Source of the DNA: a bacterium
GTDB lineage: Bacteria; Patescibacteriota; Dojkabacteria; SC72
NCBI GenBank assembly: GCA_022840695.1
Contig: JALHDC010000002.1
Coordinates: 91,374-155,373, forward strand
Length of the DNA: 64,000 bases
Direction of reading: 5' to 3'
Position numbers and translations under genes: made by a program. Positions 20,237 to 54,040 of the stretch are shown in pieces; position 1 is the first letter of the stretch, and each line of letters opens with the position of its first letter. The notes beneath the pieces were generated by a model. It searched no databases. It was not told where the DNA came from and saw only the letters and a program-made list of their open reading frames with translations.

Positions 20237-20258
20237 ATTTTGATACAATGTATTAGTT

Positions 20259-40339: not shown

Positions 40340-40398
40340 ATCTGTATAAAATTATGTCTAATTATATCAATTTCGAAATTACTTTAATATACATATTA

Positions 40399-43921: not shown

Positions 43922-44428
43922 ATGACAAAAAGATTTCTTGATGATCCTACAGGTATAGAAGATAACTCAAAACAGGAAGCATTAGATAAAATACGATTTA
44001 ATATAGAAAATATGCTAACGGGAGGAGATCAATTCACGGTCGTAGATGAGATTGTATACAACATAAACTTAAAAGATATAAATGAGTATATAAAATTTTT
44101 GAAAGCAGATAAGACCCTACCTACAAAGCTAACAAGAATTAGATCATATGATGTAGATAATCTAGATCTTTTTGAGCAATTATGTGACTATACATCTGTA
44201 AACAATTCTGAAACTCCAAGAATATGGAATCAAAAAGTATATTTCATTGAATCAGGGGATTTTGCATTAACATTCATACCGATAGCTTTGGAAGACAAAA
44301 AGAGTGTAAACATATATATGGAACCTCTAGAAGAATCACCTGATTTCATTACAGAACTTTGGGCAAAGCTTAACGAAGAGAAAAAATTAGAGGATATTGA
44401 TTTTGTAGATTACAAAGATTTACTATAA
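43922..44428 (+). CDS. hypothetical protein
   Basis: 168 aa acidic ORF, no recognised motif. Confidence 0.4.
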   Translation: MTKRFLDDPTGIEDNSKQEALDKIRFNIENMLTGGDQFTVVDEIVYNINLKDINEYIKFLKADKTLPTKLTRIRSYDVDNLDLFEQLCDYTSVNNSETPRIWNQKVYFIESGDFALTFIPIALEDKKSVNIYMEPLEESPDFITELWAKLNEEKKLEDIDFVDYKDLL

Positions 44429-44854
44429 GAAATTCACGAGATTGTTCTTAACAAAATCTTCTATCTTCCCCCTTACTTCTTCCATATCCTTAACATTACT
44501 TCCTGCTGTATATACAGTGATATCAAATAACTCTTCCTCATTACAATCTAACCAATACCCATTCTTAGCTAAATATATTAATAATGCAAATATACCCATT
44601 CTTTTATTGCCATCCTCAAATGGATGATTCTTTATACATAGGTAATATAACATTGAAGCCTTAGACACAAGAGTAGGGTATAGATCATTACCTGATATTT
44701 GTTGAAATGGTTGTGTTATTGAACTATCTAACTTACCACTATTCCTAACCTCATACTCAGAACTACTACCATCATTCTCTCTCATATACTCAGTAAATAA
44801 CTGAGCAATATATTCTAATTCTTCCTTACTTACTCTCTTATCCATACTATGCAT
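44423..44854 (-). CDS. doc: Doc (death-on-curing) Fic-family toxin
   Basis: 143 aa with Doc-type Fic motif HPFEDGNKRMG. Confidence 0.8.
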   Translation of the reverse strand: MHSMDKRVSKEELEYIAQLFTEYMRENDGSSSEYEVRNSGKLDSSITQPFQQISGNDLYPTLVSKASMLYYLCIKNHPFEDGNKRMGIFALLIYLAKNGYWLDCNEEELFDITVYTAGSNVKDMEEVRGKIEDFVKNNLVNFL

Positions 44855-44972
44855 TTTGTAATTTAATTATTGTTTTACTATATTTATCCATGGTTCTATT
44901 AAATACCTTTTTTAGGAATTCTTTTTGTTCATTTGTAAGTTGTTTGTTTTCCATATATCTATGATTATACAT
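44847..44972 (-). CDS. unannotated 41-aa ORF overlapping the doc start (ATGCATAG), candidate Phd-like antitoxin
   Basis: Hand translation gives MYNHRYMENKQLTNEQKEFLKKVFNRTMDKYSKTIIKLQNA. Upstream of and overlapping doc, as in phd-doc modules. Confidence 0.4.
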   Translation of the reverse strand: MYNHRYMENKQLTNEQKEFLKKVFNRTMDKYSKTIIKLQNA

Positions 44973-44975
44973 ATG

Positions 44976-45004
44976 TTGAAAAAGAATGTTAAAGAAAATA
45001 TAAT
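44976..45004 (+). promoter_or_regulatory. sigma70-like promoter for tRNA-Val (TTGAAA-17 bp-TATAAT)
   Basis: Near-consensus hexamers with 17-bp spacer, about 15 bp upstream of tRNA 5' end. Confidence 0.55.
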
Positions 45005-45018
45005 CCATAGTATGTAAT

Positions 45019-45092
45019 GGGCGATTAGCTCAGCTGGTTAGAGCGTCACATTGACATTGTGAAGGTCACAGGTTCGAGTCCCGTATCGCCCA
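45019..45092 (+). tRNA. tRNA-Val (anticodon GAC), CCA not encoded
   Basis: Cloverleaf folded by hand: acceptor GGGCGAT/ATCGCCC, D-arm GCTC/GAGC, anticodon stem TCACA/TGTGA with loop TTGACAT, T-loop TTCGAGT. One A:C mismatch in the T-stem. Confidence 0.8.
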
Positions 45093-45136
45093 TTTTTGTT
45101 TTTCATGATTATAGGCAGAGAAAGAGATATAGGTTG

Positions 45137-45174
45137 TTTAGTTTTTAAGTTCGAGTCCTTCAGGGCCCACCATT
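45137..45174 (+). repeat. tRNA-3'-end-like repeat copy 1 (TTTAGTTTTTAAGTTCGAGTCCTTCAGGGCCCACCATT): T-loop + acceptor 3' strand + CCA, no 5' half
   Basis: Shares GTTCGAGTCC with tRNA-Val T-arm. Ends in GCCCACCA. Homologous to copy at 45734-45774. Confidence 0.6.
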
Positions 45175-45208
45175 CCCATAAAGCATACAGATAAAGTATA
45201 ATTATCTT

Positions 45209-45727
45209 ATGGATAAATATTATCTAGGCAACTTACAAGAGCTAGAAGAATTCTGTAATTTATACTTCCCTCTCATAACTAATTATTCAAGGTCTATATT
45301 GGGAGTAGATTTATCAAATAATACTTTTGAAGGTGATCACTTAGGCATTCAGACATCATCTCATGAAGAGTATACCCATTACTACAATCTCCTATCTTCA
45401 TACATGTCACACAACTTTACAAACGATTTACATGGTAGAAAAGTGTCAATATTTTCCTTTAGAGATGAATTTGTTTCCAATGATATTTCTTTAAAAGGTG
45501 TAGAGATATTTGAGCCTAAACCTAATGTAGATAATGGGAAAATTAAACTAGGTATAGAGCACATATCAATAATAGCCAAAGAGTATGATAAAACTTTTGA
45601 GAATATCTCAAGGGCATTTATTAATAAATCTGCTGAGTATCCTGAGGGTAGATTTTTTAAAACAAAGTTTACAAATCTCGTTGAAATAGAATTTAGAGAT
45701 AGAAGTTTAATTAAGAAAGATACTTAG
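45209..45727 (+). CDS. hypothetical protein (possibly VOC/glyoxalase-like fold)
   Basis: 172 aa, flanked on both sides by the 45-bp repeat. Fold assignment weak. Confidence 0.45.
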   Translation: MDKYYLGNLQELEEFCNLYFPLITNYSRSILGVDLSNNTFEGDHLGIQTSSHEEYTHYYNLLSSYMSHNFTNDLHGRKVSIFSFRDEFVSNDISLKGVEIFEPKPNVDNGKIKLGIEHISIIAKEYDKTFENISRAFINKSAEYPEGRFFKTKFTNLVEIEFRDRSLIKKDT

Positions 45728-45733
45728 AGAAGC

Positions 45734-45774
45734 TTTAGTTTTAAGTTCAAAGCCATCCAACACCTCCCACCATT
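45734..45774 (+). repeat. repeat copy 2 (TTTAGTTTTAAGTTCAAAGCCATCCAACACCTCCCACCATT), degenerate homolog of 45137-45174
   Basis: Aligns with copy 1 over TTTAGTTTT(T)AAGTTC and CCCACCATT. Confidence 0.55.
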
Positions 45775-46222
45775 AGAAAACTTTTTCCATCTCTATGTGT
45801 AGAACTATACCATCCTCATTAGGTATTTCTTTTAGATCCTTATAACCTAAGTGTTTGTAAAAACCATGTGCTACTAAACTAGACCACAACCAAATTCTTT
45901 TATAACCATTATCTTTAATACATTTCTCAGCTACTTCTGCTAATTCCCTACCTAAGCCTTTGCCCATTTGTGAAGGTAGTACATAAAGAGATCTCATCTT
46001 GTCCTCCTTTGCTAATACACAACCCACTATCTCTCCATCGTCTTCTACTACAAAATAATCGTCATTTGTAATATATTTGGTGAGTTTCTCATTGGTATAG
46101 TTATTAAAGGTCTCTTGTATATCATCTTCAGGGTATAAATCTTTATGTGTAGCTAGAATAGATTCTCTTATAACCTTCTGGATTGAGTCTATGTCATCTA
46201 TTCTTGCCTTTCTGATAATCAT
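45773..46222 (-). CDS. GNAT family N-acetyltransferase
   Basis: 149 aa with acetyl-CoA motif A region QMGKGLGRELAE. Confidence 0.75.
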   Translation of the reverse strand: MIIRKARIDDIDSIQKVIRESILATHKDLYPEDDIQETFNNYTNEKLTKYITNDDYFVVEDDGEIVGCVLAKEDKMRSLYVLPSQMGKGLGRELAEVAEKCIKDNGYKRIWLWSSLVAHGFYKHLGYKDLKEIPNEDGIVLHIEMEKVF

Positions 46223-46257
46223 AATATTAACATTTTATTTTAATATAGGAATTATAT

Positions 46258-46268
46258 CACCCACCATT
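46258..46268 (+). repeat. CCCACCATT motif copy 3 (ATCACCCACCATTAC), 23 nt upstream of the ORF at 46292
   Basis: Same 9-mer as copies 1, 2 and 4. Preceded by GAATTATATCAC, the extended -10 TGATATAAT for the divergent GNAT gene. Confidence 0.5.
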
Positions 46269-46291
46269 ACTATTTCCTGATATACTTAACC

Positions 46292-46876
46292 ATGAACTAT
46301 ACATTAGTAGTTATCCCAACTGAAAGAGATTTAAAATTTCTTAACAATCTAAGAAATTATATATACCAAAATGACTTTAGATTTAAAAACAAACCACTAG
46401 ATTCAGACACTCACATAACCATTGCGAACATCGAAATGGATGAAGACAAGATAGCCGAATTAAAGGAAACCCTACAAGCCAATATACACAAATTAAAACC
46501 ATTCACAATCAAGAAAGAAGAATATATATTAACAAAAGAAGACAAGGAACCTAATTACAAATTCGATAATCCATATACTTGGATAGCATTAAAATTTCCA
46601 CAAAGAAAAGATATATACCAAGAGTTAGACAGAATAACTAAGGAACTAGGAATTAATAATAATGAAGAATATATTAATAATGTAAGAAGGATAGAAAGGG
46701 ATATAGAAGAAAAAGATTATATTGCAAATCATATTAATTTAAGTAATTACACTAGAAGAGATAGAGCAAATGATTGTTGGAATTATTTTAATGATAATTT
46801 ACCTAAAGAAATATTATTTAATAAGATTGGATTAAGAGATGAGAAGGGGAAGATTATTTTCATAATAAAAATATAG
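46292..46876 (+). CDS. hypothetical protein with a single 2H-phosphoesterase-like H-x-T-x motif
   Basis: 194 aa. DSDTHITIANIE present; second HxT/S motif not found. Confidence 0.4.
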   Translation: MNYTLVVIPTERDLKFLNNLRNYIYQNDFRFKNKPLDSDTHITIANIEMDEDKIAELKETLQANIHKLKPFTIKKEEYILTKEDKEPNYKFDNPYTWIALKFPQRKDIYQELDRITKELGINNNEEYINNVRRIERDIEEKDYIANHINLSNYTRRDRANDCWNYFNDNLPKEILFNKIGLRDEKGKIIFIIKI

Positions 46877-46924
46877 GAAGACTGTAATTCTATAAAAAAG
46901 TTCATGCACTTACTATCCCCATCC

Positions 46925-47767
46925 CTACACCCTAGTCCTATTTACCTTCTCCCTCCCTTTATGTTGTTCTATATGCTTAATATAATATCCCTCAACTCTC
47001 TTTCTATAATCCACACCATTACTCTTAAAATATTGGAATATATCTAAATAATACCCAGAAGGAATATCAGAGGGTACACAATAACCATTCCTTTTCAACT
47101 GATCCCTTATGTATCTCAATTGATTAAATGTAAAAAGCTTTTTAAATGTATCTAACACATTCCCATTCATCTGATTAAAAATATATGTAATAAAATCCCT
47201 ATATAATTTAAATTCTTCCTCAGCATTATTCTTCTTCATAATCCTAAGTAAAACAATATCTACATTGGGTACAGGATTAAAATCCTCCCTATTAAAACTT
47301 TCAACCATACTAAGATTATATACAGAGGAAACTATTGCACCTATTTGAGTATTCTTTGGTATACCCATATATCTTTCAGCAGATTCTTTTTGAACAAATA
47401 TATATGCTTCAATTAGTTTTGATTCTATATCTGTAATTTTGTTAATAATATCTGAAGTTAAGGAAAATGGTATATTTGCAAACACTTTGTATCCATTATT
47501 GGGTAAGTCAGAGGTAAGGAAGTCTTCATTTTTTAAAACAACGTTAGGATTATCTTTAAAAAGTTCTTCCAATATACCAAAATATCTTGAATCTAATTCG
47601 TATGCTATTACGTTATTACAATGTTTTACTAATTCTTTTGTTATTGCTCCTGTACCAGCCCCTATATCAATTACAGTATCGTTATTAGAGATATTAATAG
47701 AAGTTATTATTCTTTCTAAATTTTTTTTATTTTTATATAAGTTTTGGGAATATTTAATATCTACCAT
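46925..47767 (-). CDS. Erm/KsgA-family rRNA adenine N6-methyltransferase (Erm-like)
   Basis: 280 aa. SAM motif IDIGAGTGAITKEL and YKVFANIPFSLTSDIINKI, close to the Erm YKIFGNIPYNISTDII pattern. Confidence 0.7.
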   Translation of the reverse strand: MVDIKYSQNLYKNKKNLERIITSINISNNDTVIDIGAGTGAITKELVKHCNNVIAYELDSRYFGILEELFKDNPNVVLKNEDFLTSDLPNNGYKVFANIPFSLTSDIINKITDIESKLIEAYIFVQKESAERYMGIPKNTQIGAIVSSVYNLSMVESFNREDFNPVPNVDIVLLRIMKKNNAEEEFKLYRDFITYIFNQMNGNVLDTFKKLFTFNQLRYIRDQLKRNGYCVPSDIPSGYYLDIFQYFKSNGVDYRKRVEGYYIKHIEQHKGREKVNRTRV

Positions 47768-47825
47768 ATGAGAATTATATCACTAGAATTAATTAGACAG
47801 GACTCTTAGGTTCTATACTTTTTAA

Positions 47826-47839
47826 TATCGCCCACCATT
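47826..47839 (+). repeat. CCCACCATT motif copy 4 (ATATCGCCCACCATTT): matches tRNA-Val acceptor 3' end TATCGCCCA plus CCA
   Basis: 9/9 identity to the tRNA-Val 3' end at 45084-45092, followed by CCA. Sits 26 nt upstream of GNAT gene 47866. Confidence 0.55.
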
Positions 47840-47865
47840 TATATTCTCTGCTATAATAATACCCT

Positions 47866-48330
47866 ATGATCCCCAACCTTACCTACAAACTAAATGATAT
47901 CTCAAACATAGATAACCCTCTAATACTCTCTATTAAAATATTCAATCCCTCTAAAGAAAAAACTTTAAAATACCATAACAAAGAAGATTGGTTAAACAAG
48001 ATTAAAGATAAAGGGATATTAATATCAGTATATGATGATGATAAGTGTATAGCCTTTGCAATCTGTTACAAAACTAATAGTGATACATTACATATATGGA
48101 ATGTAGGTGTTCTAGATGAATATAGAGGACTAGGTATATGGAGAGAAACATATAACAGAATAATTGATTATGCTATTAAACAAGGTTTTAAGAAAATAAC
48201 ATTAAATACATATAAGGATAAATTCCCTAATATGTATGCATTTGTAAAGAAAGAAAGTTTTGATTTAATAAAAGAAGAATTTAACAAAGATGGGGAAATG
48301 AAGTCTTGTTTTGTTAAAAGGGTTAGATAG
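47866..48330 (+). CDS. GNAT family N-acetyltransferase
   Basis: 154 aa with motif VLDEYRGLGIWRE. Confidence 0.7.
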   Translation: MIPNLTYKLNDISNIDNPLILSIKIFNPSKEKTLKYHNKEDWLNKIKDKGILISVYDDDKCIAFAICYKTNSDTLHIWNVGVLDEYRGLGIWRETYNRIIDYAIKQGFKKITLNTYKDKFPNMYAFVKKESFDLIKEEFNKDGEMKSCFVKRVR

Positions 48331-48557
48331 GATACTCTGATATACCTAAATGATGATAAAAATATCACTCAGGATAATTGGTATCCAGTATAGGGATAAA
48401 AGAGATAAGGTTCTGGAAGAACTAAAGAAGATAGGGGAGTATTATTTAAAGAGGAATTTGAGTTTGTAATATTTAATATCTCTAGCCATTTTCTCAAAAA
48501 CATATAACTTCGAATTTTTTAAATTCCTTCCTCTCAAAACACCTGGGAAAAGTCTCT

Positions 48558-49097
48558 CTATTTATTAAAATATTTACTTAATATAAATTTCTTTCTCCAT
48601 TCTCTAGTAGGAATAGGATATGCCCCTAATTTATCTTCAGAAAGCTTATCATAAAAATCATTCCAAAAATTACAAGTTGGATATGCACATCCTTTTCCTG
48701 ACCTATTCCTTATTACACTATCCTGAGGTTTACCATTGTATGTATAGTTAATCATGTTTTTAGGATCCCTAGAAAAGGAATTTAAAGATGTAGTCACTGC
48801 CTTAAAAATACATTCATTACCATTCTCATCCTCAAAAGAATGGATTATAAATAAATTATCCTTCTTAGGATTGTATGTATTCTGTACTTCGGGAATAATG
48901 AAATTCTTCTTGTTAAGAACCTGTTCCCATAATCGAACATGTTCCGAATCACATGTAATAGAATTAATGTAACACTCTTTAGAGGCAGAGGATATAACAG
49001 GCCATCCAGCCTCTTCCCAATCAGATTCCGTAAGAGATTGAAGTAATGGTTCTATTTCAACAACTTCATTTTCTCTCACAGTATCCTGAAATTCCAT
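48558..49097 (-). CDS. hypothetical protein
   Basis: 179 aa, Cys- and Trp-containing, no recognised motif. Confidence 0.4.
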   Translation of the reverse strand: MEFQDTVRENEVVEIEPLLQSLTESDWEEAGWPVISSASKECYINSITCDSEHVRLWEQVLNKKNFIIPEVQNTYNPKKDNLFIIHSFEDENGNECIFKAVTTSLNSFSRDPKNMINYTYNGKPQDSVIRNRSGKGCAYPTCNFWNDFYDKLSEDKLGAYPIPTREWRKKFILSKYFNK

Positions 49098-49202
49098 AGA
49101 AAATTATACCATTAAATATATATATTTTAGTTAAATCTATTTCACTAGTATGTATTACAAACACCTGCTATATTCAGTTAATAATATATTAAATATATAC
49201 AT

Positions 49203-49898
49203 ATGACTGATCTACACAATATCCAAATGTTAATACTTAGAGAACTCCTCTTCACACCAAACTCCAGATTCTCTGATTTAAATATACAAGGATTAAGTAG
49301 TGATCATTTTTCATACCATATTAAAACATTAATAGAACAGGAATATGTACAAAAGGATAGTTCTAGATACTCATTAACTGTAAAGGGAAAGGAATTTGCA
49401 AACCGTATGGATACTGATGAAGCAAGTATTGAGAAGCAACCTAAAGTAGCAGTAATGATTGTAGCTACTAAGACAGAAGGAAAAAAGAAATATCTATTAA
49501 TACAAGAAAGAACTAAAGAACCATATTTTGGATATAGTGGATTTATAACAGGAAAGATTAGATATGGAGAGAAGGTTATAGAGACTGCAAAAAGAGAACT
49601 TAAAGAAGAGAGTGGGTTAGAGTGTGAGAATATACATATTAAAAGGTTAGTACATGATCATGTTGTATTAAAAGATACAGGAGAGTTAGTAGAGGATAAG
49701 ATGTTCTACATTGTACATATGATTAATCCAACAGGAGAGTTAATAAATACTCCAAATGGAAAGAATATATGGATAACGGAGAGTCAGTTTAAGAAACTTA
49801 AAAAGAAATATTACAATGAAGAAAATATGTATGAGATATCACAGATGAAAGGGGATATGGATCTAGTAGAGAGTACATATATTATTGAGGAGTTTTAG
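49203..49898 (+). CDS. winged-helix (HTH) - Nudix hydrolase fusion protein
   Basis: 231 aa. N-terminal wHTH-like segment. Nudix box GKIRYGEKVIETAKRELKEESGLE. Confidence 0.7.
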   Translation: MTDLHNIQMLILRELLFTPNSRFSDLNIQGLSSDHFSYHIKTLIEQEYVQKDSSRYSLTVKGKEFANRMDTDEASIEKQPKVAVMIVATKTEGKKKYLLIQERTKEPYFGYSGFITGKIRYGEKVIETAKRELKEESGLECENIHIKRLVHDHVVLKDTGELVEDKMFYIVHMINPTGELINTPNGKNIWITESQFKKLKKKYYNEENMYEISQMKGDMDLVESTYIIEEF

Positions 49899-50891
49899 TT
49901 AGTGAATTAATTTCTCAACTAACCCTTCTAAACCTTTTGAATAAAAATCTAACATACTTATCTCATTATCTAAAAAGCAATCAACCCTTGTACTATTGTT
50001 TACATAATGTTCTGTCGCTATCCATAAGGAATGAACTTTCTTTAAAAAGTAAACCTTGAAACCGTCCATTAATTCCTCCTTAGAAATATCATATACATTT
50101 CTATACGAATCTAGAAATACCTTAGCATTAGATCTGCACTCATCATCATATCCCAAATTTAAACATGTTAGATCCAAAGCCCTAACTAACTCATATGATC
50201 TAGGAGCTATAGTTGTATTATCCAAATCAAAAACATATTTGATTTCATCTACATCATTATCAAAGAAAACATTCTTCTCATGATAATCTCCATGTATTAG
50301 ATGATCATTCTTTATATTAAAGTCTTCAAATCTTAAATCATTTTCCTTAGCCATATTAATCTTCTTTTCTAGGTATATTGCAAATTTCATATCTATATCA
50401 CTCTTCTCCTTCATATTTTGAATCTGAAGCAATATCCTTTCTGCTTCCTTTACAAACTCCTCCATATCCCAGTATTTTTTACTTCTAAAAACAGTAGAGG
50501 GATAACCATCCTTACTCACTAGATGTATTCTTCCTAAGATATTTCCTAAAGAAGATATAGCTTGATTAGAAAGATTCTCTCTTCTTAACATACGACCATA
50601 TACAAAAGGATATAGAGTGTAGTATTTTTCTTTAAATGTAAATACCTTACTCCCATCTTTACACTCATATGGCATAACTATTGGAATATCTTTCTTAAAG
50701 AATATATCCTCAACCTTATGTATATTATCAATCCTTTCTATATCATCAAACCCATACTGCTTAAGAAAGTATTTCTTTCCATCATCTATTAATATACTAT
50801 TAACACTAATATATCCCTCTTTTACATCTTCCAACAATCTTAATTCACCCTTTAAATCATATATCTTCTTTAATTGTTGTATAACTTCCAT
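49899..50891 (-). CDS. APH/ChoK-family phosphotransferase (aminoglycoside/macrolide phosphotransferase-like kinase)
   Basis: 330 aa. Catalytic loop HGDYHEKNVFFD, Mg-binding VFDLDNT, beta3 Lys region YFLKQY. Confidence 0.7.
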   Translation of the reverse strand: MEVIQQLKKIYDLKGELRLLEDVKEGYISVNSILIDDGKKYFLKQYGFDDIERIDNIHKVEDIFFKKDIPIVMPYECKDGSKVFTFKEKYYTLYPFVYGRMLRRENLSNQAISSLGNILGRIHLVSKDGYPSTVFRSKKYWDMEEFVKEAERILLQIQNMKEKSDIDMKFAIYLEKKINMAKENDLRFEDFNIKNDHLIHGDYHEKNVFFDNDVDEIKYVFDLDNTTIAPRSYELVRALDLTCLNLGYDDECRSNAKVFLDSYRNVYDISKEELMDGFKVYFLKKVHSLWIATEHYVNNSTRVDCFLDNEISMLDFYSKGLEGLVEKLIH

Positions 50892-50913
50892 ATTTAGAAA
50901 TACTGTATTAAAT

Positions 50914-51195
50914 ATGTTATTCTATACAAATATTAAGATTAAGACCAGAGAACAGGGTATGCCTAGACCACAAAAATTCAAACCAGGAGTATATAAACAT
51001 TTTAAGGGTGAACTATTCCTTGCACTATTCTTAGCAAAACATAGTGAGACAGAAGAAGATATGGTTATATATGTAGGACTATATGACAAAACAAAAGGAC
51101 AGATATGGGCTAGACCTGTAGATATGTTTATGGGCTACAAAGAGTTTGAAGACGGTACTAAGGTAAAGAGATTTGAATTTATTAGGGAGAGATAA
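50914..51195 (+). CDS. DUF1653-like protein
   Basis: 93 aa. YKHFKGELF...VIYVGLYD...WARPVDMF pattern. Confidence 0.5.
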   Translation: MLFYTNIKIKTREQGMPRPQKFKPGVYKHFKGELFLALFLAKHSETEEDMVIYVGLYDKTKGQIWARPVDMFMGYKEFEDGTKVKRFEFIRER

Positions 51196-51461
51196 TGACA
51201 ACGAAGGAAAAATACAAAGCACTAAAGAACGGAAAATGGCAAAACAAATATTTCTGTAAATTAGCATTACTAGATCATTTAAGAGAATGCCTGGAAAAAG
51301 ATAATTATCTTAAAGCTACAGACACACCTAAAAGTGATTTGGGATATGAAAACTTGGAAAAAGAGCTCATGGATTTAAAAATCATTCTTGATTTGTATTT
51401 CAATGATTCGACTTTGCACGAAAAAAGATTAGACAAATTCATAGAAAATTTGGAAAAATAA
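51195..51461 (+). CDS. hypothetical protein
   Basis: 88 aa ORF whose start overlaps the preceding stop. Confidence 0.4.
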   Translation: MTTKEKYKALKNGKWQNKYFCKLALLDHLRECLEKDNYLKATDTPKSDLGYENLEKELMDLKIILDLYFNDSTLHEKRLDKFIENLEK

Positions 51462-51494: not shown

Positions 51495-53411
51495 GTGCTA
51501 AAATTACACCCTCTTATGCCAAATTCCCATATTGAGAAACAAAACTTAAGAAATCTTGCTATTATCGCGCATGTAGACCATGGCAAAACTACCCTTGTAG
51601 ATGCATTCATGAAGCAAACTCATATGTTTAGAGAAAATGAAGAAGAAATGAATCAAACTAGAATACTGGATGTAGGGGAATTAGAAAAGGAGAAAGGTAT
51701 AACCATAAATGCAAAGAACATATCCATTAAGTATAAGGATGTAAAAATAAATATCATAGATACACCAGGACATGCAGACTTTGGAGGAGAAGTAGAAAGA
51801 ACATTAAATATGGCAGATAGCTGTCTTCTTTTGGTGGATGCAAAAGAAGGTACAATGCCACAAACTAAATTTGTACTTAAAAAAGCATTAGAATTAGGAT
51901 TAAAACCAGTAGTACTGGTAAATAAGGTGGACAAGAAACTAGCTAATGTACAAAAAACAATATCTAAAATACAAGACCTCTTTCTTAATTTAGCAACTAA
52001 TGAAGAGCAATTAGATTTTAAAATATTCTACGGTATAGCTAGAGAAGGAAAAATATGGGAAACATTACCCCAAGGAGATTTAACCATACCAAATAGTACA
52101 ACAGGAGATCTCACACCAATACTAGATGAAATTGTAAACAATCTACCTAGTCCAAAAGGAGATGAGAACAAACCATTCCAAATGCAAATTACATCTGTTG
52201 AGTACAATGAGCACTTAGGAAGATATTTAATTGGAAAAATATCAAACGGGAAAATATCCGTAAATGATCCTGTAATACTTGTTTCAAATAAAGAAGATTT
52301 TGAAAAGAAACAGGGTAGAGTTAGAGAGATATTTGTGAAAGAGGGTATGAGTTGGGAAAAGGTTGAAAGTGCATCTACTGGTGAAATAATTGCATTAACA
52401 GGAATTGATTCTACAGATATTGGTGCGACACTTTGTAGCTTAGATAATCCTCAACCATTACCAGAAATTAAAATGACTCCACCATCTGTGAGAGTTAAAT
52501 TTTCTGCTAATACATCTCCTTTTGTAGGAAAAGAGGGGAAATTTGTAACTGCAAAACAGCTAGGACAAAGGTTAGAACAGGAGAAGAATTTAAATATTAG
52601 TTTGAATATAACTAATGTAGGAAGTAACAGCTATTTTGTAGCTGGTAGGGGAGAATTGCAATTGGCAATATTAGTAGAACAGCTAAGAAGAGAAGGGTAT
52701 GAATTTGAATTGAGTAAACCAGAGGTAATACTACAAGAGATAGATGGGGTAAAGTGTGAACCTATGGAAGAATTAAGTATTAATGCTCCAGAAATGTACT
52801 TTAGTACAATAACCCAAGAAGTTAATGAAAGGGGAGGAAAATTAATAGATATTGAGAATAATGAAGGAGAAAACACATATACATTTAATATACTAACTAG
52901 AAATCTAATAGGATTACATAGAGTATTAATGACAGCTACCAAAGGTACTGCCGTTATTAATAGCTATATTGTTGACTATGTACCACATCAAGAAGGTAAT
53001 GAGTTATTTAGAAAAGGAGCTATTATATCCACTGAGACAGGAACAGCATTAGCATATGCATTGATGACAGTACAAGAGAGAGGGAAATTATTCATAGAGG
53101 GTTCTACAGAGGTATATGAAGGAATGATTATTGGTATAAATAATCATGAGAATGATCTTGAGGTTAATCCATGTAAGGCAAGACATAAGACAAATGTAAG
53201 AATGTCTCATGCAGAAGTAACAGAGATAGCACTTAAAGCACCTATACAATTAACCATAGAGTATGCTCTTTCTTTTATAAATAATGATGAATTAATAGAG
53301 GTCACACCTAAGAACATAAGGTTAAGAAAGAAACTTTTAACTGATACACAGAGAACTTGGGCAAAAAGAAAGAACTTAACTGCATATGCAAAAGAGCATT
53401 TGGAAGGATAA
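51495..53411 (+). CDS. typA: translational GTPase TypA/BipA
   Basis: 638 aa. G1 AIIAHVDHGKTTLVD and EF-G-like domains. Confidence 0.9.
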   Translation: MLKLHPLMPNSHIEKQNLRNLAIIAHVDHGKTTLVDAFMKQTHMFRENEEEMNQTRILDVGELEKEKGITINAKNISIKYKDVKINIIDTPGHADFGGEVERTLNMADSCLLLVDAKEGTMPQTKFVLKKALELGLKPVVLVNKVDKKLANVQKTISKIQDLFLNLATNEEQLDFKIFYGIAREGKIWETLPQGDLTIPNSTTGDLTPILDEIVNNLPSPKGDENKPFQMQITSVEYNEHLGRYLIGKISNGKISVNDPVILVSNKEDFEKKQGRVREIFVKEGMSWEKVESASTGEIIALTGIDSTDIGATLCSLDNPQPLPEIKMTPPSVRVKFSANTSPFVGKEGKFVTAKQLGQRLEQEKNLNISLNITNVGSNSYFVAGRGELQLAILVEQLRREGYEFELSKPEVILQEIDGVKCEPMEELSINAPEMYFSTITQEVNERGGKLIDIENNEGENTYTFNILTRNLIGLHRVLMTATKGTAVINSYIVDYVPHQEGNELFRKGAIISTETGTALAYALMTVQERGKLFIEGSTEVYEGMIIGINNHENDLEVNPCKARHKTNVRMSHAEVTEIALKAPIQLTIEYALSFINNDELIEVTPKNIRLRKKLLTDTQRTWAKRKNLTAYAKEHLEG

Positions 53412-53413
53412 TA

Positions 53414-53710
53414 TTACTTCTTCCTTTTTACAAACCTTATTTCAAGATCTCTATCTAAAGCATTAGCTATTTGGACTAATTTAGAAATAGACACATTTCT
53501 ATTCCCTGTTTCAATCTTACTAATCGTGCTACGTGGTATACCTGATTTAATAGACAAAGTATCTTGAGAATATCCATACTTCTCTCTAAGCTCTTTCATT
53601 TCCCTTAGGGCTATTCTTTGATTTGCTACTCTTTCTATTTCCTTAACATCTTCAGATGTAAAGTTCTTTTTTATATATTCTTCTATTGTTATTAAATTTT
53701 TCTTTTTCAT
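53414..53710 (-). CDS. higA: HTH XRE-family antitoxin (HigA-like)
   Basis: 98 aa Cro/C1-type HTH. Immediately downstream of the HigB-like toxin. Confidence 0.75.
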   Translation of the reverse strand: MKKKNLITIEEYIKKNFTSEDVKEIERVANQRIALREMKELREKYGYSQDTLSIKSGIPRSTISKIETGNRNVSISKLVQIANALDRDLEIRFVKRKK

Positions 53711-53716
53711 ATTTTT

Positions 53717-54040
53717 CTATATTAATCTATTTTTTCTCTTTAATGCCTTTTCTATCTCTCTCAAAGGTGTTTTCTGTGTCTTCTTTCTAAATGCAGTAAG
53801 AATAACGATGTCTTGCCCTAAGTAAGAATACATACATCTATATATCCCGTCATCCTTTACCCTCATCTCGTATAAATCGTAGCCCACAATCTTTCTTCCT
53901 TCTGGATATTTCAACGTTCCATATTTTCTCAACTCTAGGATCAAAGATACAAATTCCTTTCTAACACTCTTCTCAAAAAGAGCTAGCTCTTTTTCTGCAC
54001 TGGATTCTATATATACTTCTTTTCTAAATAATTGTGTCAT
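53717..54040 (-). CDS. higB: RelE/ParE-superfamily toxin, Gp49/HigB-like
   Basis: 107 aa. C-terminus FRKKTQKTPLREIEKALKR matches the Gp49-like toxin signature. Confidence 0.75.
   Translation of the reverse strand: MTQLFRKEVYIESSAEKELALFEKSVRKEFVSLILELRKYGTLKYPEGRKIVGYDLYEMRVKDDGIYRCMYSYLGQDIVILTAFRKKTQKTPLREIEKALKRKNRLI

Follow-up and report, generated by a model that had tools for sequence, protein, structure and literature searches.

We analyzed a 64-kb stretch of a Dojkabacteria genome (contig JALHDC010000002.1, positions 91,374 to 155,373; hereafter the window), in which a short motif, CCCACCATT, recurs among the genes that follow a tRNA-Val gene. The window has a GC content of 31%. Its sole tRNA gene, tRNA-Val(GAC) at 45018-45093 on the plus strand, was identified by ARAGORN and by Rfam (68 bits), and Rfam matched nothing in the window except this tRNA. 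The gene anchors the array described here and would supply the B arm and core of an attachment (att) site. Upstream of it lie, in order, genes for a sortase, tig, clpP, a 168-amino-acid (aa) open reading frame (ORF), and a Fic/Doc-family gene on the minus strand. Downstream, an island runs in the order YecM-like (plus), GNAT (minus), LigT-like (plus), Erm-like (minus), GNAT (plus), 179-aa ORF (minus), winged helix-turn-helix (wHTH)-Nudix (plus), APH (minus), DUF1653 (plus), and 88-aa ORF, and it is followed by typA, which begins at 51495.

The motif is present in four exact copies starting at 45166, 45766, 46260, and 47831 (copies 1 to 4), all on the plus strand and all within 2.7 kb downstream of tRNA-Val. 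Only 0.31 copies were expected per window, and none of 100 dinucleotide-preserving shuffles reached four. There was no further exact copy on either strand of the window, in coding or noncoding DNA, and one-mismatch variants occurred at chance level (12 seen, 8.2 expected). An earlier note on this stretch had listed four intergenic copies and reported the motif absent elsewhere outside coding DNA. The positions and the absence both hold, but copy 2 is not strictly intergenic, because the minus-strand GNAT gene has its stop codon (45773-45775) within the overlap with this copy.

The tRNA-Val gene of the window ends in ...TATCGCCCA|TTTTT and does not encode CCA. Copy 4, which lies 2.7 kb away, consists of TATCGCCCA plus CCA (TATCGCCCACCA, 47826-47837) and matches the tRNA 3′ end plus CCA at 12 of 12 positions, as the earlier note had stated; copy 3 matches at 11 of 12. 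For comparison, relatives were sampled as 80 Dojkabacteria loci anchored on tig, and tRNA-Val(GAC) occupies the same syntenic position (tig-clpP-...-tRNA-Val) in 60 of the 80. Most of these genes end in ...GTATCGCCCACCA followed by T or TT (TATCGCCCACCA|TT), and a minority, the window included, end in ...GCCCA|TTT without CCA. Because the relatives' tRNA-Val encodes CCA, copy 4 corresponds to the ancestral tRNA 3′ end, displaced by 2.7 kb. Judged by these alignments, CCCACCATT is the ancestral tRNA-Val 3′ end (acceptor CCC, discriminator A, and CCA) followed by TT.

The encoded CCA is itself polymorphic across Dojkabacteria (60 loci; window 45084-45098), reading ...GCCCACCA|TT or ...GCCCA|TT. 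On the face of the two variants, the difference is a 3-nt insertion or deletion in a tandem CCACCA. Slippage could produce it, as could recombination in a shifted register at the att core, and the tRNA-Val of the window would then depend on a CCA-adding enzyme.

The array in the window contains at least five cassettes (YecM-like, GNAT, LigT-like, Erm-like, and GNAT) and now holds no recombinase. Its boundaries are formed by the motif, referred to below as the core, together with the longer repeat unit to which the core belongs. The array opens with a gene-less stub of 81 nt (45094-45174, plus) that ends in unit copy 1 (about 45133-45174, GTTGTTTAGTTTTTAAGTTCGAGTCCTTCAGGGCCCACCATT). Cassette 1 (45175-45775, plus) has a TATAAT at 45197-45202, a YecM-like ORF at 45209-45727 (Pfam YecM), and unit copy 2 (45724-45775), whose core occupies 45766-45774. 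Cassette 2 (45773-46268, minus) comprises a GNAT gene (45773-46222; Pfam), an extended -10 promoter element on the minus strand (TGATATAAT, 46259-46251), and core copy 3 (46254-46268, ATATCACCCACCATT). Cassette 3 (46269-46925, plus) has an extended -10 element at 46278-46286 (TGATATACT) and a LigT-like (2H phosphoesterase) ORF at 46292-46876 with a weak match to Pfam LigT_PEase, and it closes in a decayed unit at about 46886-46925 (ATTCTATAAAAAAGTTCATGCACTTACTATCCCCATCC). On sequence alone this decayed unit scores 27, within the window background. Homology to the Erm-like cassette in eight other genomes starts at 46920-46932, and in four of them the tRNA end or an intact core precedes it, so a boundary must separate the LigT-like and Erm-like genes. 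The interval 46269-47839, a single segment if only the four copies of the earlier note are counted, is therefore two cassettes. Cassette 4 (46926-47839, minus) carries an Erm-like rRNA adenine dimethylase gene at 46925-47767 (Pfam RrnaAD, 1.4e-43), an extended -10 element at 47782-47774 on the minus strand, and unit copy 4 at 47789-47839, with its core at 47831-47839. Cassette 5 (47840-48555, plus) has an extended -10 element at 47849-47857 (TGCTATAAT), a GNAT ORF at 47866-48330 (Pfam), and two tentative decayed unit-like stretches with background-level scores (48469-48491 and 48515-48552).

The 45-nt unit and its cassettes across Dojkabacteria

The core belongs to a 45-nt unit, TTTTTAAGTTCCATGC-N6-RTATCGCCCACCATT, of which 17 relatives carry one to six plus-strand copies after tRNA-Val. 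Register was set by anchoring on the core and adding relatives, and 24 units from relatives then aligned without any gap; a MAFFT alignment of the four window copies with the tRNA end fell out of register and was uninformative. The consensus of 41 units reads TTTTTAAGTTCCATGC, 5 to 6 variable bases, and A.TAT.GCCCACCATT, with high information in the left arm and core and low information in the right arm. A hidden Markov model (HMM) of the unit, searched with nhmmer, gave 43 matches at E < 1e-3 in the 17 relatives and the window. All were on the plus strand and downstream of tRNA-Val, and none lay in the 651 kb upstream of tRNA-Val in the relatives. The largest array, in locus L070, has six units, and L026, L057, L068, and L081 have four each. 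The core also covaries with the acceptor of the resident tRNA, reading GTCCACCA in L015. Rfam contained no match to the unit.

The 8-mer CCACCATT occurs 8 times on the plus strand and 4 times on the minus strand in the 651 kb upstream of tRNA-Val, and 28 and 15 times, respectively, in the 290 kb downstream. Six of the 15 downstream minus-strand occurrences fall in a single locus (L058, 13201-15019), within a long plus-strand ORF for a Gly-rich repeat protein, and are unrelated to the att units.

Within the window, copies 2 and 4 are canonical full units (nhmmer E = 6.9e-9 and 3.2e-8). Copy 1 is atypical: it is 4 nt shorter than the family consensus, aligns only with a 4-nt gap, and has the third-best local score in the window. 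Its left flank is unit-like, whereas its spacing and T-loop (GTTCGAGTCC) are tRNA-like, in keeping with the earlier description of this copy as resembling a tRNA 3′ half. That description had gone on to regard copy 2 as a degenerate homolog of copy 1, whereas copy 2 is the canonical family member. The YecM-like ORF (45209-45727) is indeed flanked by direct repeats, but they are two different unit subtypes and not a parent and its degenerate copy. Copy 1 is homologous to positions 13286-13325 of L026, which precede the equivalent YecM-like cassette there, and its acceptor-like GAGTCCTTCAGGGCCCA was not found as a genuine tRNA end in any fetched locus. Copy 3 retains only the core and 6 nt (15 nt of the unit) and lacks the left, or P, arm because its left flank is the extended -10 element of the divergent GNAT gene.

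Comparison of relatives showed that, across Dojkabacteria, tRNA-Val is directly followed by a variable island that the 45-nt unit divides, and that differences in gene content between genomes break at unit cores. Loci L057 and L063 are 84% identical up to the last base of tRNA-Val, where L057 has an additional 3,146 nt with three units. Homology resumes at the unit core that matches the tRNA end of L063, and the two are 91 to 93% identical across the shared cassette. The earlier note had proposed serial site-specific insertion at the tRNA-Val 3′ end, each event leaving an att remnant, and had suggested looking in related genomes for indels at the repeats. The arrays in 17 relatives support that proposal, as does the L057/L063 difference, whose two limits are precisely the tRNA end and a unit.

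Individual cassettes recur in different contexts. The YecM-like cassette of the window (45140-45753) has its counterpart in the second cassette of L026, with 78.5% identity. Eight genomes (L027, L076, L047, L068, L026, L070, L021, and L066) contain the Erm-like cassette (46920-47839), and for both cassettes the homology is limited by cores. In these genomes the Erm-like cassette lies directly after the tRNA (L027 and L076), directly after a unit (L047 and L026), or deeper in the array (L068 and L070). Its neighbors always differ, and the unit at its end has in every case a variant specific to this cassette, TTCTATAC. The identity of these cassettes to the window copy (68 to 81%) is discordant with core-gene identity, the most similar copies being those of the more distant L068, L047, and L070. 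This cassette thus travels with its own unit and gains different neighbors on both sides.

Measured from core to core, the segments had a median of 744 nt (n = 45), and most of them contained one ORF. Cassettes are usually 350 to 2,000 bp long, with genes in either orientation (38 plus-strand and 16 minus-strand ORFs; n = 54 from 17 arrays). The Pfam families of these 54 ORFs are those of accessory enzymes; YecM was found five times, rRNA adenine dimethylase four times, and uracil-DNA glycosylase (UDG) and peptidase S41 three times each. Families seen once were ArsP, histidine phosphatase, LD-carboxypeptidase, Mrr, M23 peptidase, amidohydrolase, DsbD, thioredoxin, Ham1, GNAT, and glyoxalase. 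One cassette, at about 160-345 of L101 in the minus-strand reading, lies between an intact and a decayed unit and has no ORF. It consists of a TTGATATAAT promoter and then a GC-richer segment of about 150 nt closed by the inverted repeat GTAGGTCG...CGACCTAC. By its layout it looks like a structured small RNA; Rfam gave no match to it at E ≤ 1.

Beyond cassette 5, the window contains a probably older part of the island without recognizable units (48558-51461). It comprises the 179-aa ORF (minus), the wHTH-Nudix gene (49203-49898, plus), the APH gene (49899-50891, minus), the DUF1653 gene (50914-51195, plus), and the 88-aa ORF (plus), with families assigned by Pfam. Homologs of the Nudix and DUF1653 genes occur 80 to 7,059 nt after tRNA-Val in eight relatives (L086, L087, L046, L079, L020, L045, L071, and L026), and typA lies within 8 to 10 kb of tRNA-Val in none, which rules it out as a conserved distal flank. 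Given these variable distances and the position of typA, the island probably reaches as far as 51.46 kb, its older sites having eroded. As to typA itself, gene calls vary by source (600, 631, and 638 aa), and one NCBI assembly copy lacks about 30 nt of the window near the typA 5′ end, where the alignment splits at 51572/51603 (window 51573-51602).

Two further gene pairs flank the island. The Fic/Doc-family gene (44423-45008, minus) and a small upstream ORF (53 aa) lie directly upstream of tRNA-Val, and 15 relatives have them at the same place, about -650 relative to the tRNA end; they are likely a toxin-antitoxin pair on the nonvariable side of the hotspot. Just downstream of typA, Gp49 (HigB-like) and HTH_3 genes (53414-54040, minus) form a probable toxin-antitoxin module.

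Several assemblies break at this locus. Two start at window position 45046 and two at 45067-45068, five contigs end at tRNA-Val, and two end inside it; another two end at 48417-48502, close to decayed units. Such independent breaks are consistent with strain-level heterogeneity at cassette boundaries in the sampled populations.

Large serine recombinase elements and their attachment sites

In the closest sequenced relative (tig 80% identical), an identical tRNA-Val is followed by a gene for a 597-aa large serine recombinase (LSR) in place of the cassettes of the window. The protein has Resolvase, Recombinase, and Zn_ribbon domains, and the 3′ end of its gene overlaps the tRNA end. Homologs with 73 to 99% identity occupy the same place in L078, L064, L067, and L072. 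Overall, an LSR adjoins tRNA-Val in L012/L017, in these four loci, in L101, and also in L104-L111, with the gene 3′ end overlapping the tRNA end. The earlier suspicion of a tyrosine recombinase is thus not borne out by the enzyme at the relatives' tRNA-Val site.

We traced four LSR elements to their distal ends, in L101 (12.4 kb), L104 (11.2 kb), L106 (10.9 kb), and L064 (8.1 kb), and each ends in the unit TTTAAGTTCCATGCCTGAAAGTGTAGCCCACCA. The L101 element carries the LSR, FtsK/SpoIIIE, a TerS-like gene, and an MmeI-type restriction-modification gene. In L106, tRNA-Val(TAC) is followed by the LSR element, a unit, a 650-nt cassette, another unit, and the Erm-like cassette. Because the LSR elements lie between tRNA-Val and an identical unit, the unit is the attR of the LSR element family, consisting of the P arm and core, and the 3′ coding end of the LSR supplies the P′ arm.

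An LSR 91 to 93% identical to that of L012 sits at tRNA-Val(TAC), beside tRNA-Leu(GAG), in L105, L106, and L111. The 3′ half of tRNA-Val(TAC) (GGTTCGAATCCTGTGYCGYCCACCA) resembles that of tRNA-Val(GAC). At least two tRNA-Val genes thus serve as targets of the element family. A copy of TAATATTTAAGTTCCATG, the outer part of the unit, is found inverted just upstream of the LSR start in L012 (14710-14727, minus), L064 (14484-14497, minus), and L078 (13997-14014, minus); it may be a chance match or a candidate site for LSR autoregulation.

An attP was rebuilt from the unit as P arm and the LSR-side arm as P′, with TAAGTTCCATGCCTGAAAGTGTAGCCCACCATCCATCTTTTTCTGCCTGTAACTTA as its 56-bp form. In the rebuilt L101 attP, the top center of inverted symmetry is CCCA|CCA (13 of 26 positions), with TAAGTT/AACTTA placed symmetrically at ±23-28. 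In the unit, the motif AAGTTCCA occupies -27 to -20; its counterpart in the tRNA, AGGTTCGA, occupies -23 to -16 and is shifted by 4 bp. As an imperfect inverted repeat, some 56 bp long and arranged about a central dinucleotide position, the rebuilt attP resembles serine integrase attP sites, which span about 50 bp. With the outer motif nearer the center, attB is shorter than attP, much as in the published rule that the outer (ZD) motif lies 5 bp closer to the center in attB than in attP (Rutherford et al. 2013, PMC3783163). The half-sites on the right were too variable for this shift to be scored. The outer motifs are at positions 20-27 here and at 16-24 in the published sites (PMC3783163), a comparison that, like the L101 symmetry, was read from sequence. 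A shared outer motif that lies 4 bp nearer the center in attB would explain why the unit resembles a tRNA 3′ half with extra bases. At 9 to 14 bp, the common core is unusually long for serine integrase sites, probably because the tRNA 3′ end must be restored.

Taken as a whole, the repeats are att-type junctions and neither operators nor integron attC sites. We consider it likely that CCCACCATT is the shared core of site-specific recombination sites that are centered on the tRNA-Val 3′ end and divide the island into cassettes. The LSR would cut at CCCA|CCA, and the attP and attB half-sites would carry the same outer binding motif (AAGTTCCA versus AGGTTCGA), 4 bp closer to the center in attB. 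Each cassette junction would be an attR-type site made of the P arm, the core, and a variable right arm. An LSR element excising via a more distal attR could carry cassettes away in trans and integrate at another tRNA-Val, and later excision at its own attR would leave the cassettes behind. The cassettes would be expressed from their own promoters as leaderless mRNAs. Since the window has no recombinase, any mobilization there would have to occur in trans. We are more tentative about a broader proposal, to which we give somewhat less than even credence. It envisages a lineage-wide Dojkabacteria tRNA-Val cassette platform, a serine-recombinase-serviced analogue of the integron, in which itinerant LSR elements capture, shuffle, and exchange single-gene cassettes between species via alternative attR sites, every cassette having its own promoter, a leaderless mRNA, and a P-type half-site with the core.

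A number of results weigh against recombination by LSR elements as an account of the cassettes. With respect to the sites, the tRNA-like spacing of copy 1 is not predicted by LSR recombination, and the local-alignment scores of the decayed units at 46886, 48469, and 48515 are not separable from background. The distal unit of the L064 element has an altered core without CACCATT, and the shift between attP and attB is 4 bp, compared with 5 bp in the structural model. The right arms, which would be B′ half-sites, are low in information and unconserved. With respect to the enzyme, a tblastn search with the relatives' LSR found none in the 64-kb window. Pfam found no recombinase in the gene calls from 35 to 56 kb or in 20 further ORFs of suitable size, the latter giving only housekeeping families, in agreement with the earlier report of no recombinase in the window. 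Likewise, no recombinase family was among the top families of the 54 cassette ORFs in 17 arrays. Known serine integrases recombine attP with attB, and attL with attR only when a directionality factor is present; none was identified here. The excised attP junction GTRTAGCCCACCATCCATCT had no match in IMG/VR, and a scan of that database with the unit pattern gave eight matches, of which seven were chance matches in unrelated, GC-richer contigs and L101 alone was real. Finally, the apparent mobility of cassettes could in part reflect vertical inheritance together with deletions between repeats.

Alternative explanations for the repeats

The main rival is that the units are fossil scars. Under this explanation, they are the attR sites of full-size LSR or other elements that inserted at tRNA-Val and decayed through internal deletion, the cassettes never move as units, and the array is shaped by accretion and by RecA-mediated deletion between the 40-nt repeats. 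It would explain why many cassette units are identical to the unit at the end of full-size LSR elements, why units far from the tRNA look decayed, why right arms are unconserved, and why the excised form was not found in IMG/VR, and it matches the accretion model for Prochlorococcus islands (10.1101/2020.12.28.424599). Random deletion, however, should not keep yielding one-gene units in which the core is followed by an ATG 24 to 40 nt on. Nor does it fit the Erm-like cassette, which keeps the TTCTATAC variant while its neighbors differ on both sides and its identity is discordant with that of core genes, or the cassette shared by L057 and L063, which is 91 to 93% identical in loci whose core DNA is 84% identical. 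We therefore regard this explanation as unlikely, though it is the most serious competitor to LSR-mediated cassette movement.

Less probable still is an integron-like system in which a tyrosine recombinase encoded elsewhere in the genome (e.g., a Xer-type enzyme) recognizes the unit and the LSR merely shares the tRNA target. Its appeal is that integron arrays likewise have one gene per cassette, a 3′ site linked to the cassette, and a mixed cargo, which here includes GNAT, glyoxalase, Erm-like, and toxin-like genes, and that no LSR lies within the window. The arrays also bear a likeness to the pdif modules of Acinetobacter. In addition, tRNA 3′ ends are classic targets of tyrosine integrases (PMC4383910). 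Against this, neither the window nor any array showed a tyrosine recombinase, and the unit forms the exact distal end of four independent LSR elements and makes a core-centered inverted repeat with the LSR-side arm. The units also do not fold: six of them, folded as single-stranded DNA, gave z-scores of -0.5 to +1.2 relative to shuffles, which rules out an attC-like hairpin. Of the integron-like array suggested in the earlier note, the one-gene cassettes stand, whereas attC hairpins, IntI, and dependence on a Pc promoter do not.

We give almost no credence to the remaining two explanations. The first, a shared operator or promoter raised in the earlier note, takes CCCACCATT as a transcription-factor or sigma-factor site that coregulates neighboring plus-strand genes. 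It draws on promoters at the junctions. Copies 1, 3, and 4 lie 34, 23, and 26 nt, respectively, before plus-strand ATG codons, which confirms the range of 23 to 34 nt given at first reading, and copies 3 and 4 share 25 of 31 nt, an extended -10 element included. Among 78 junctions anchored by nhmmer unit matches, about a quarter (21) had an extended -10 element (TGnTAYWMT) right of the core, compared with 1.35% of random windows. The offset is largely fixed, with 15 of the 21 starting at +12 to +15 after CCA, and in 17 of the 21 an ATG follows 5 to 8 nt past the hexamer, a distance that implies leaderless mRNAs.

Extended -10 promoters also occur elsewhere in the window without CCCACCATT. TGnTATAAT was found at unrelated genes at 20241 and 54114 on the plus strand and at 49111, 47782, 40369, and 13441 on the minus strand, with an ATG 1 to 9 nt away at five of the six and 27 nt away at 40369; the pattern suggests that leaderless mRNAs may be common in this organism. 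Since the same promoter style appears without the motif, the downstream likeness of copies 3 and 4 reflects a promoter beside the site and not an operator. Moreover, copy 2 faces the 3′ end of a minus-strand gene, the 8-mer CCACCATT is rare in the 651 kb of flanking DNA upstream of tRNA-Val in relatives (12 matches on both strands), the motif covaries with the tRNA acceptor (GTCCACCA in L015), and conservation is concentrated in a tRNA-mimicking stretch upstream of the core. We reject the operator on these grounds. The second, an RNA-level tRNA-like element that aids processing or stability at the 3′ end of cassette mRNAs in the manner of plant mitochondrial t-elements, fits units that start about 10 nt past the stop of plus-strand cassette genes and end in ACCA, but it is hardly credible when 16 of 54 cassette ORFs are on the opposite strand, when the unit has no 5′ acceptor strand, stable fold, or Rfam match, and when LSR elements carry it at their boundary.

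Known systems and significance

The island resembles the tRNA-anchored islands of Prochlorococcus and their tycheposons (Hackl et al., 10.1101/2020.12.28.424599). In both, partial tRNA copies separate successive elements, as the units do here, degenerate integrase-less remnants accumulate, heterogeneity peaks next to the tRNA, and the host is streamlined with few other mobile elements. In the window, copy 4 provides the distal repeat of the tRNA 3′ end expected of a tRNA-integrated island, and among relatives presence/absence breakpoints fall at the repeats. Tycheposons are multigene elements with mostly tyrosine recombinases, replication modules, and scattered partial tRNAs, whereas the Dojkabacteria locus is a dense one-gene array (median 744 nt) associated with an LSR. 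The repeats also differ: that of tycheposons is a plain tRNA copy, and that of Dojkabacteria is a conserved unit that includes the P arm and exceeds the tRNA 3′ half by 4 nt. No integrase gene was found in the window's island, where tycheposon hallmark genes were not specifically searched.

A second parallel is the staphylococcal cassette chromosome (SCC). Pseudo-SCC elements without a recombinase are thought to be mobilized in trans. The composite SCC islands at rlmH (10.1101/336396) share with the locus described here an LSR at the 3′ end of a conserved gene, tandem elements between short direct repeats, and recombinase-less members. This layout is seen in L106, and the array in the window is recombinase-less. 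SCC elements are 5 to 60 kb long, multigene, and inserted in a protein-coding target, in contrast to the single genes with their own leaderless promoters at tRNA-Val, where the LSR was characterized by its Pfam domain architecture.

Integrons, above all the sedentary chromosomal ones, are the third parallel. They are one-site platforms of single-ORF cassettes, each with its own recombination site at one end, and are defined by attC, IntI, attI, and Pc; attC sites vary in sequence but keep an imperfect palindrome that folds as single-stranded DNA. Dojkabacteria likewise have single-ORF arrays of up to six units at one variable chromosomal site, with GNAT, glyoxalase/VOC-like, methyltransferase, and toxin-like cargo and with the same cassette at different array positions between genomes. 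These arrays differ in having neither intI nor attI and no attC structure with a GTTRRRY core. Their sites are instead conserved in sequence around CCCACCATT and unfolded, and their cassettes, which in integrons are promoterless and in one orientation, have their own promoters and either orientation. Considered alongside these systems, the locus can be described as combining a tRNA-anchored additive island, an SCC-like composite island, and integron-like one-gene cassettes. A limited literature search found no papers linking Dojkabacteria or Patescibacteria with such arrays.

Little is understood of how bacteria of the Candidate Phyla Radiation (CPR)/Patescibacteria, with their tiny genomes and few recognized mobile elements, acquire accessory genes. 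Here, a conserved hotspot is used across a whole class-level lineage, with one gene per cassette behind a defined 45-nt site. Its cargo includes resistance-like and repair-like genes (Erm-like methyltransferase, GNATs, APH, Nudix, UDG, and glyoxalase). Because the attP, attB, and LSR sequences are defined, the idea is directly testable. Should a serine integrase indeed service the junctions, they would offer many naturally occurring sequence variants of LSR att sites that target a tRNA. Dojkabacteria would then possess a second answer, independent in mechanism from that of integrons, to the problem of building cassette arrays.

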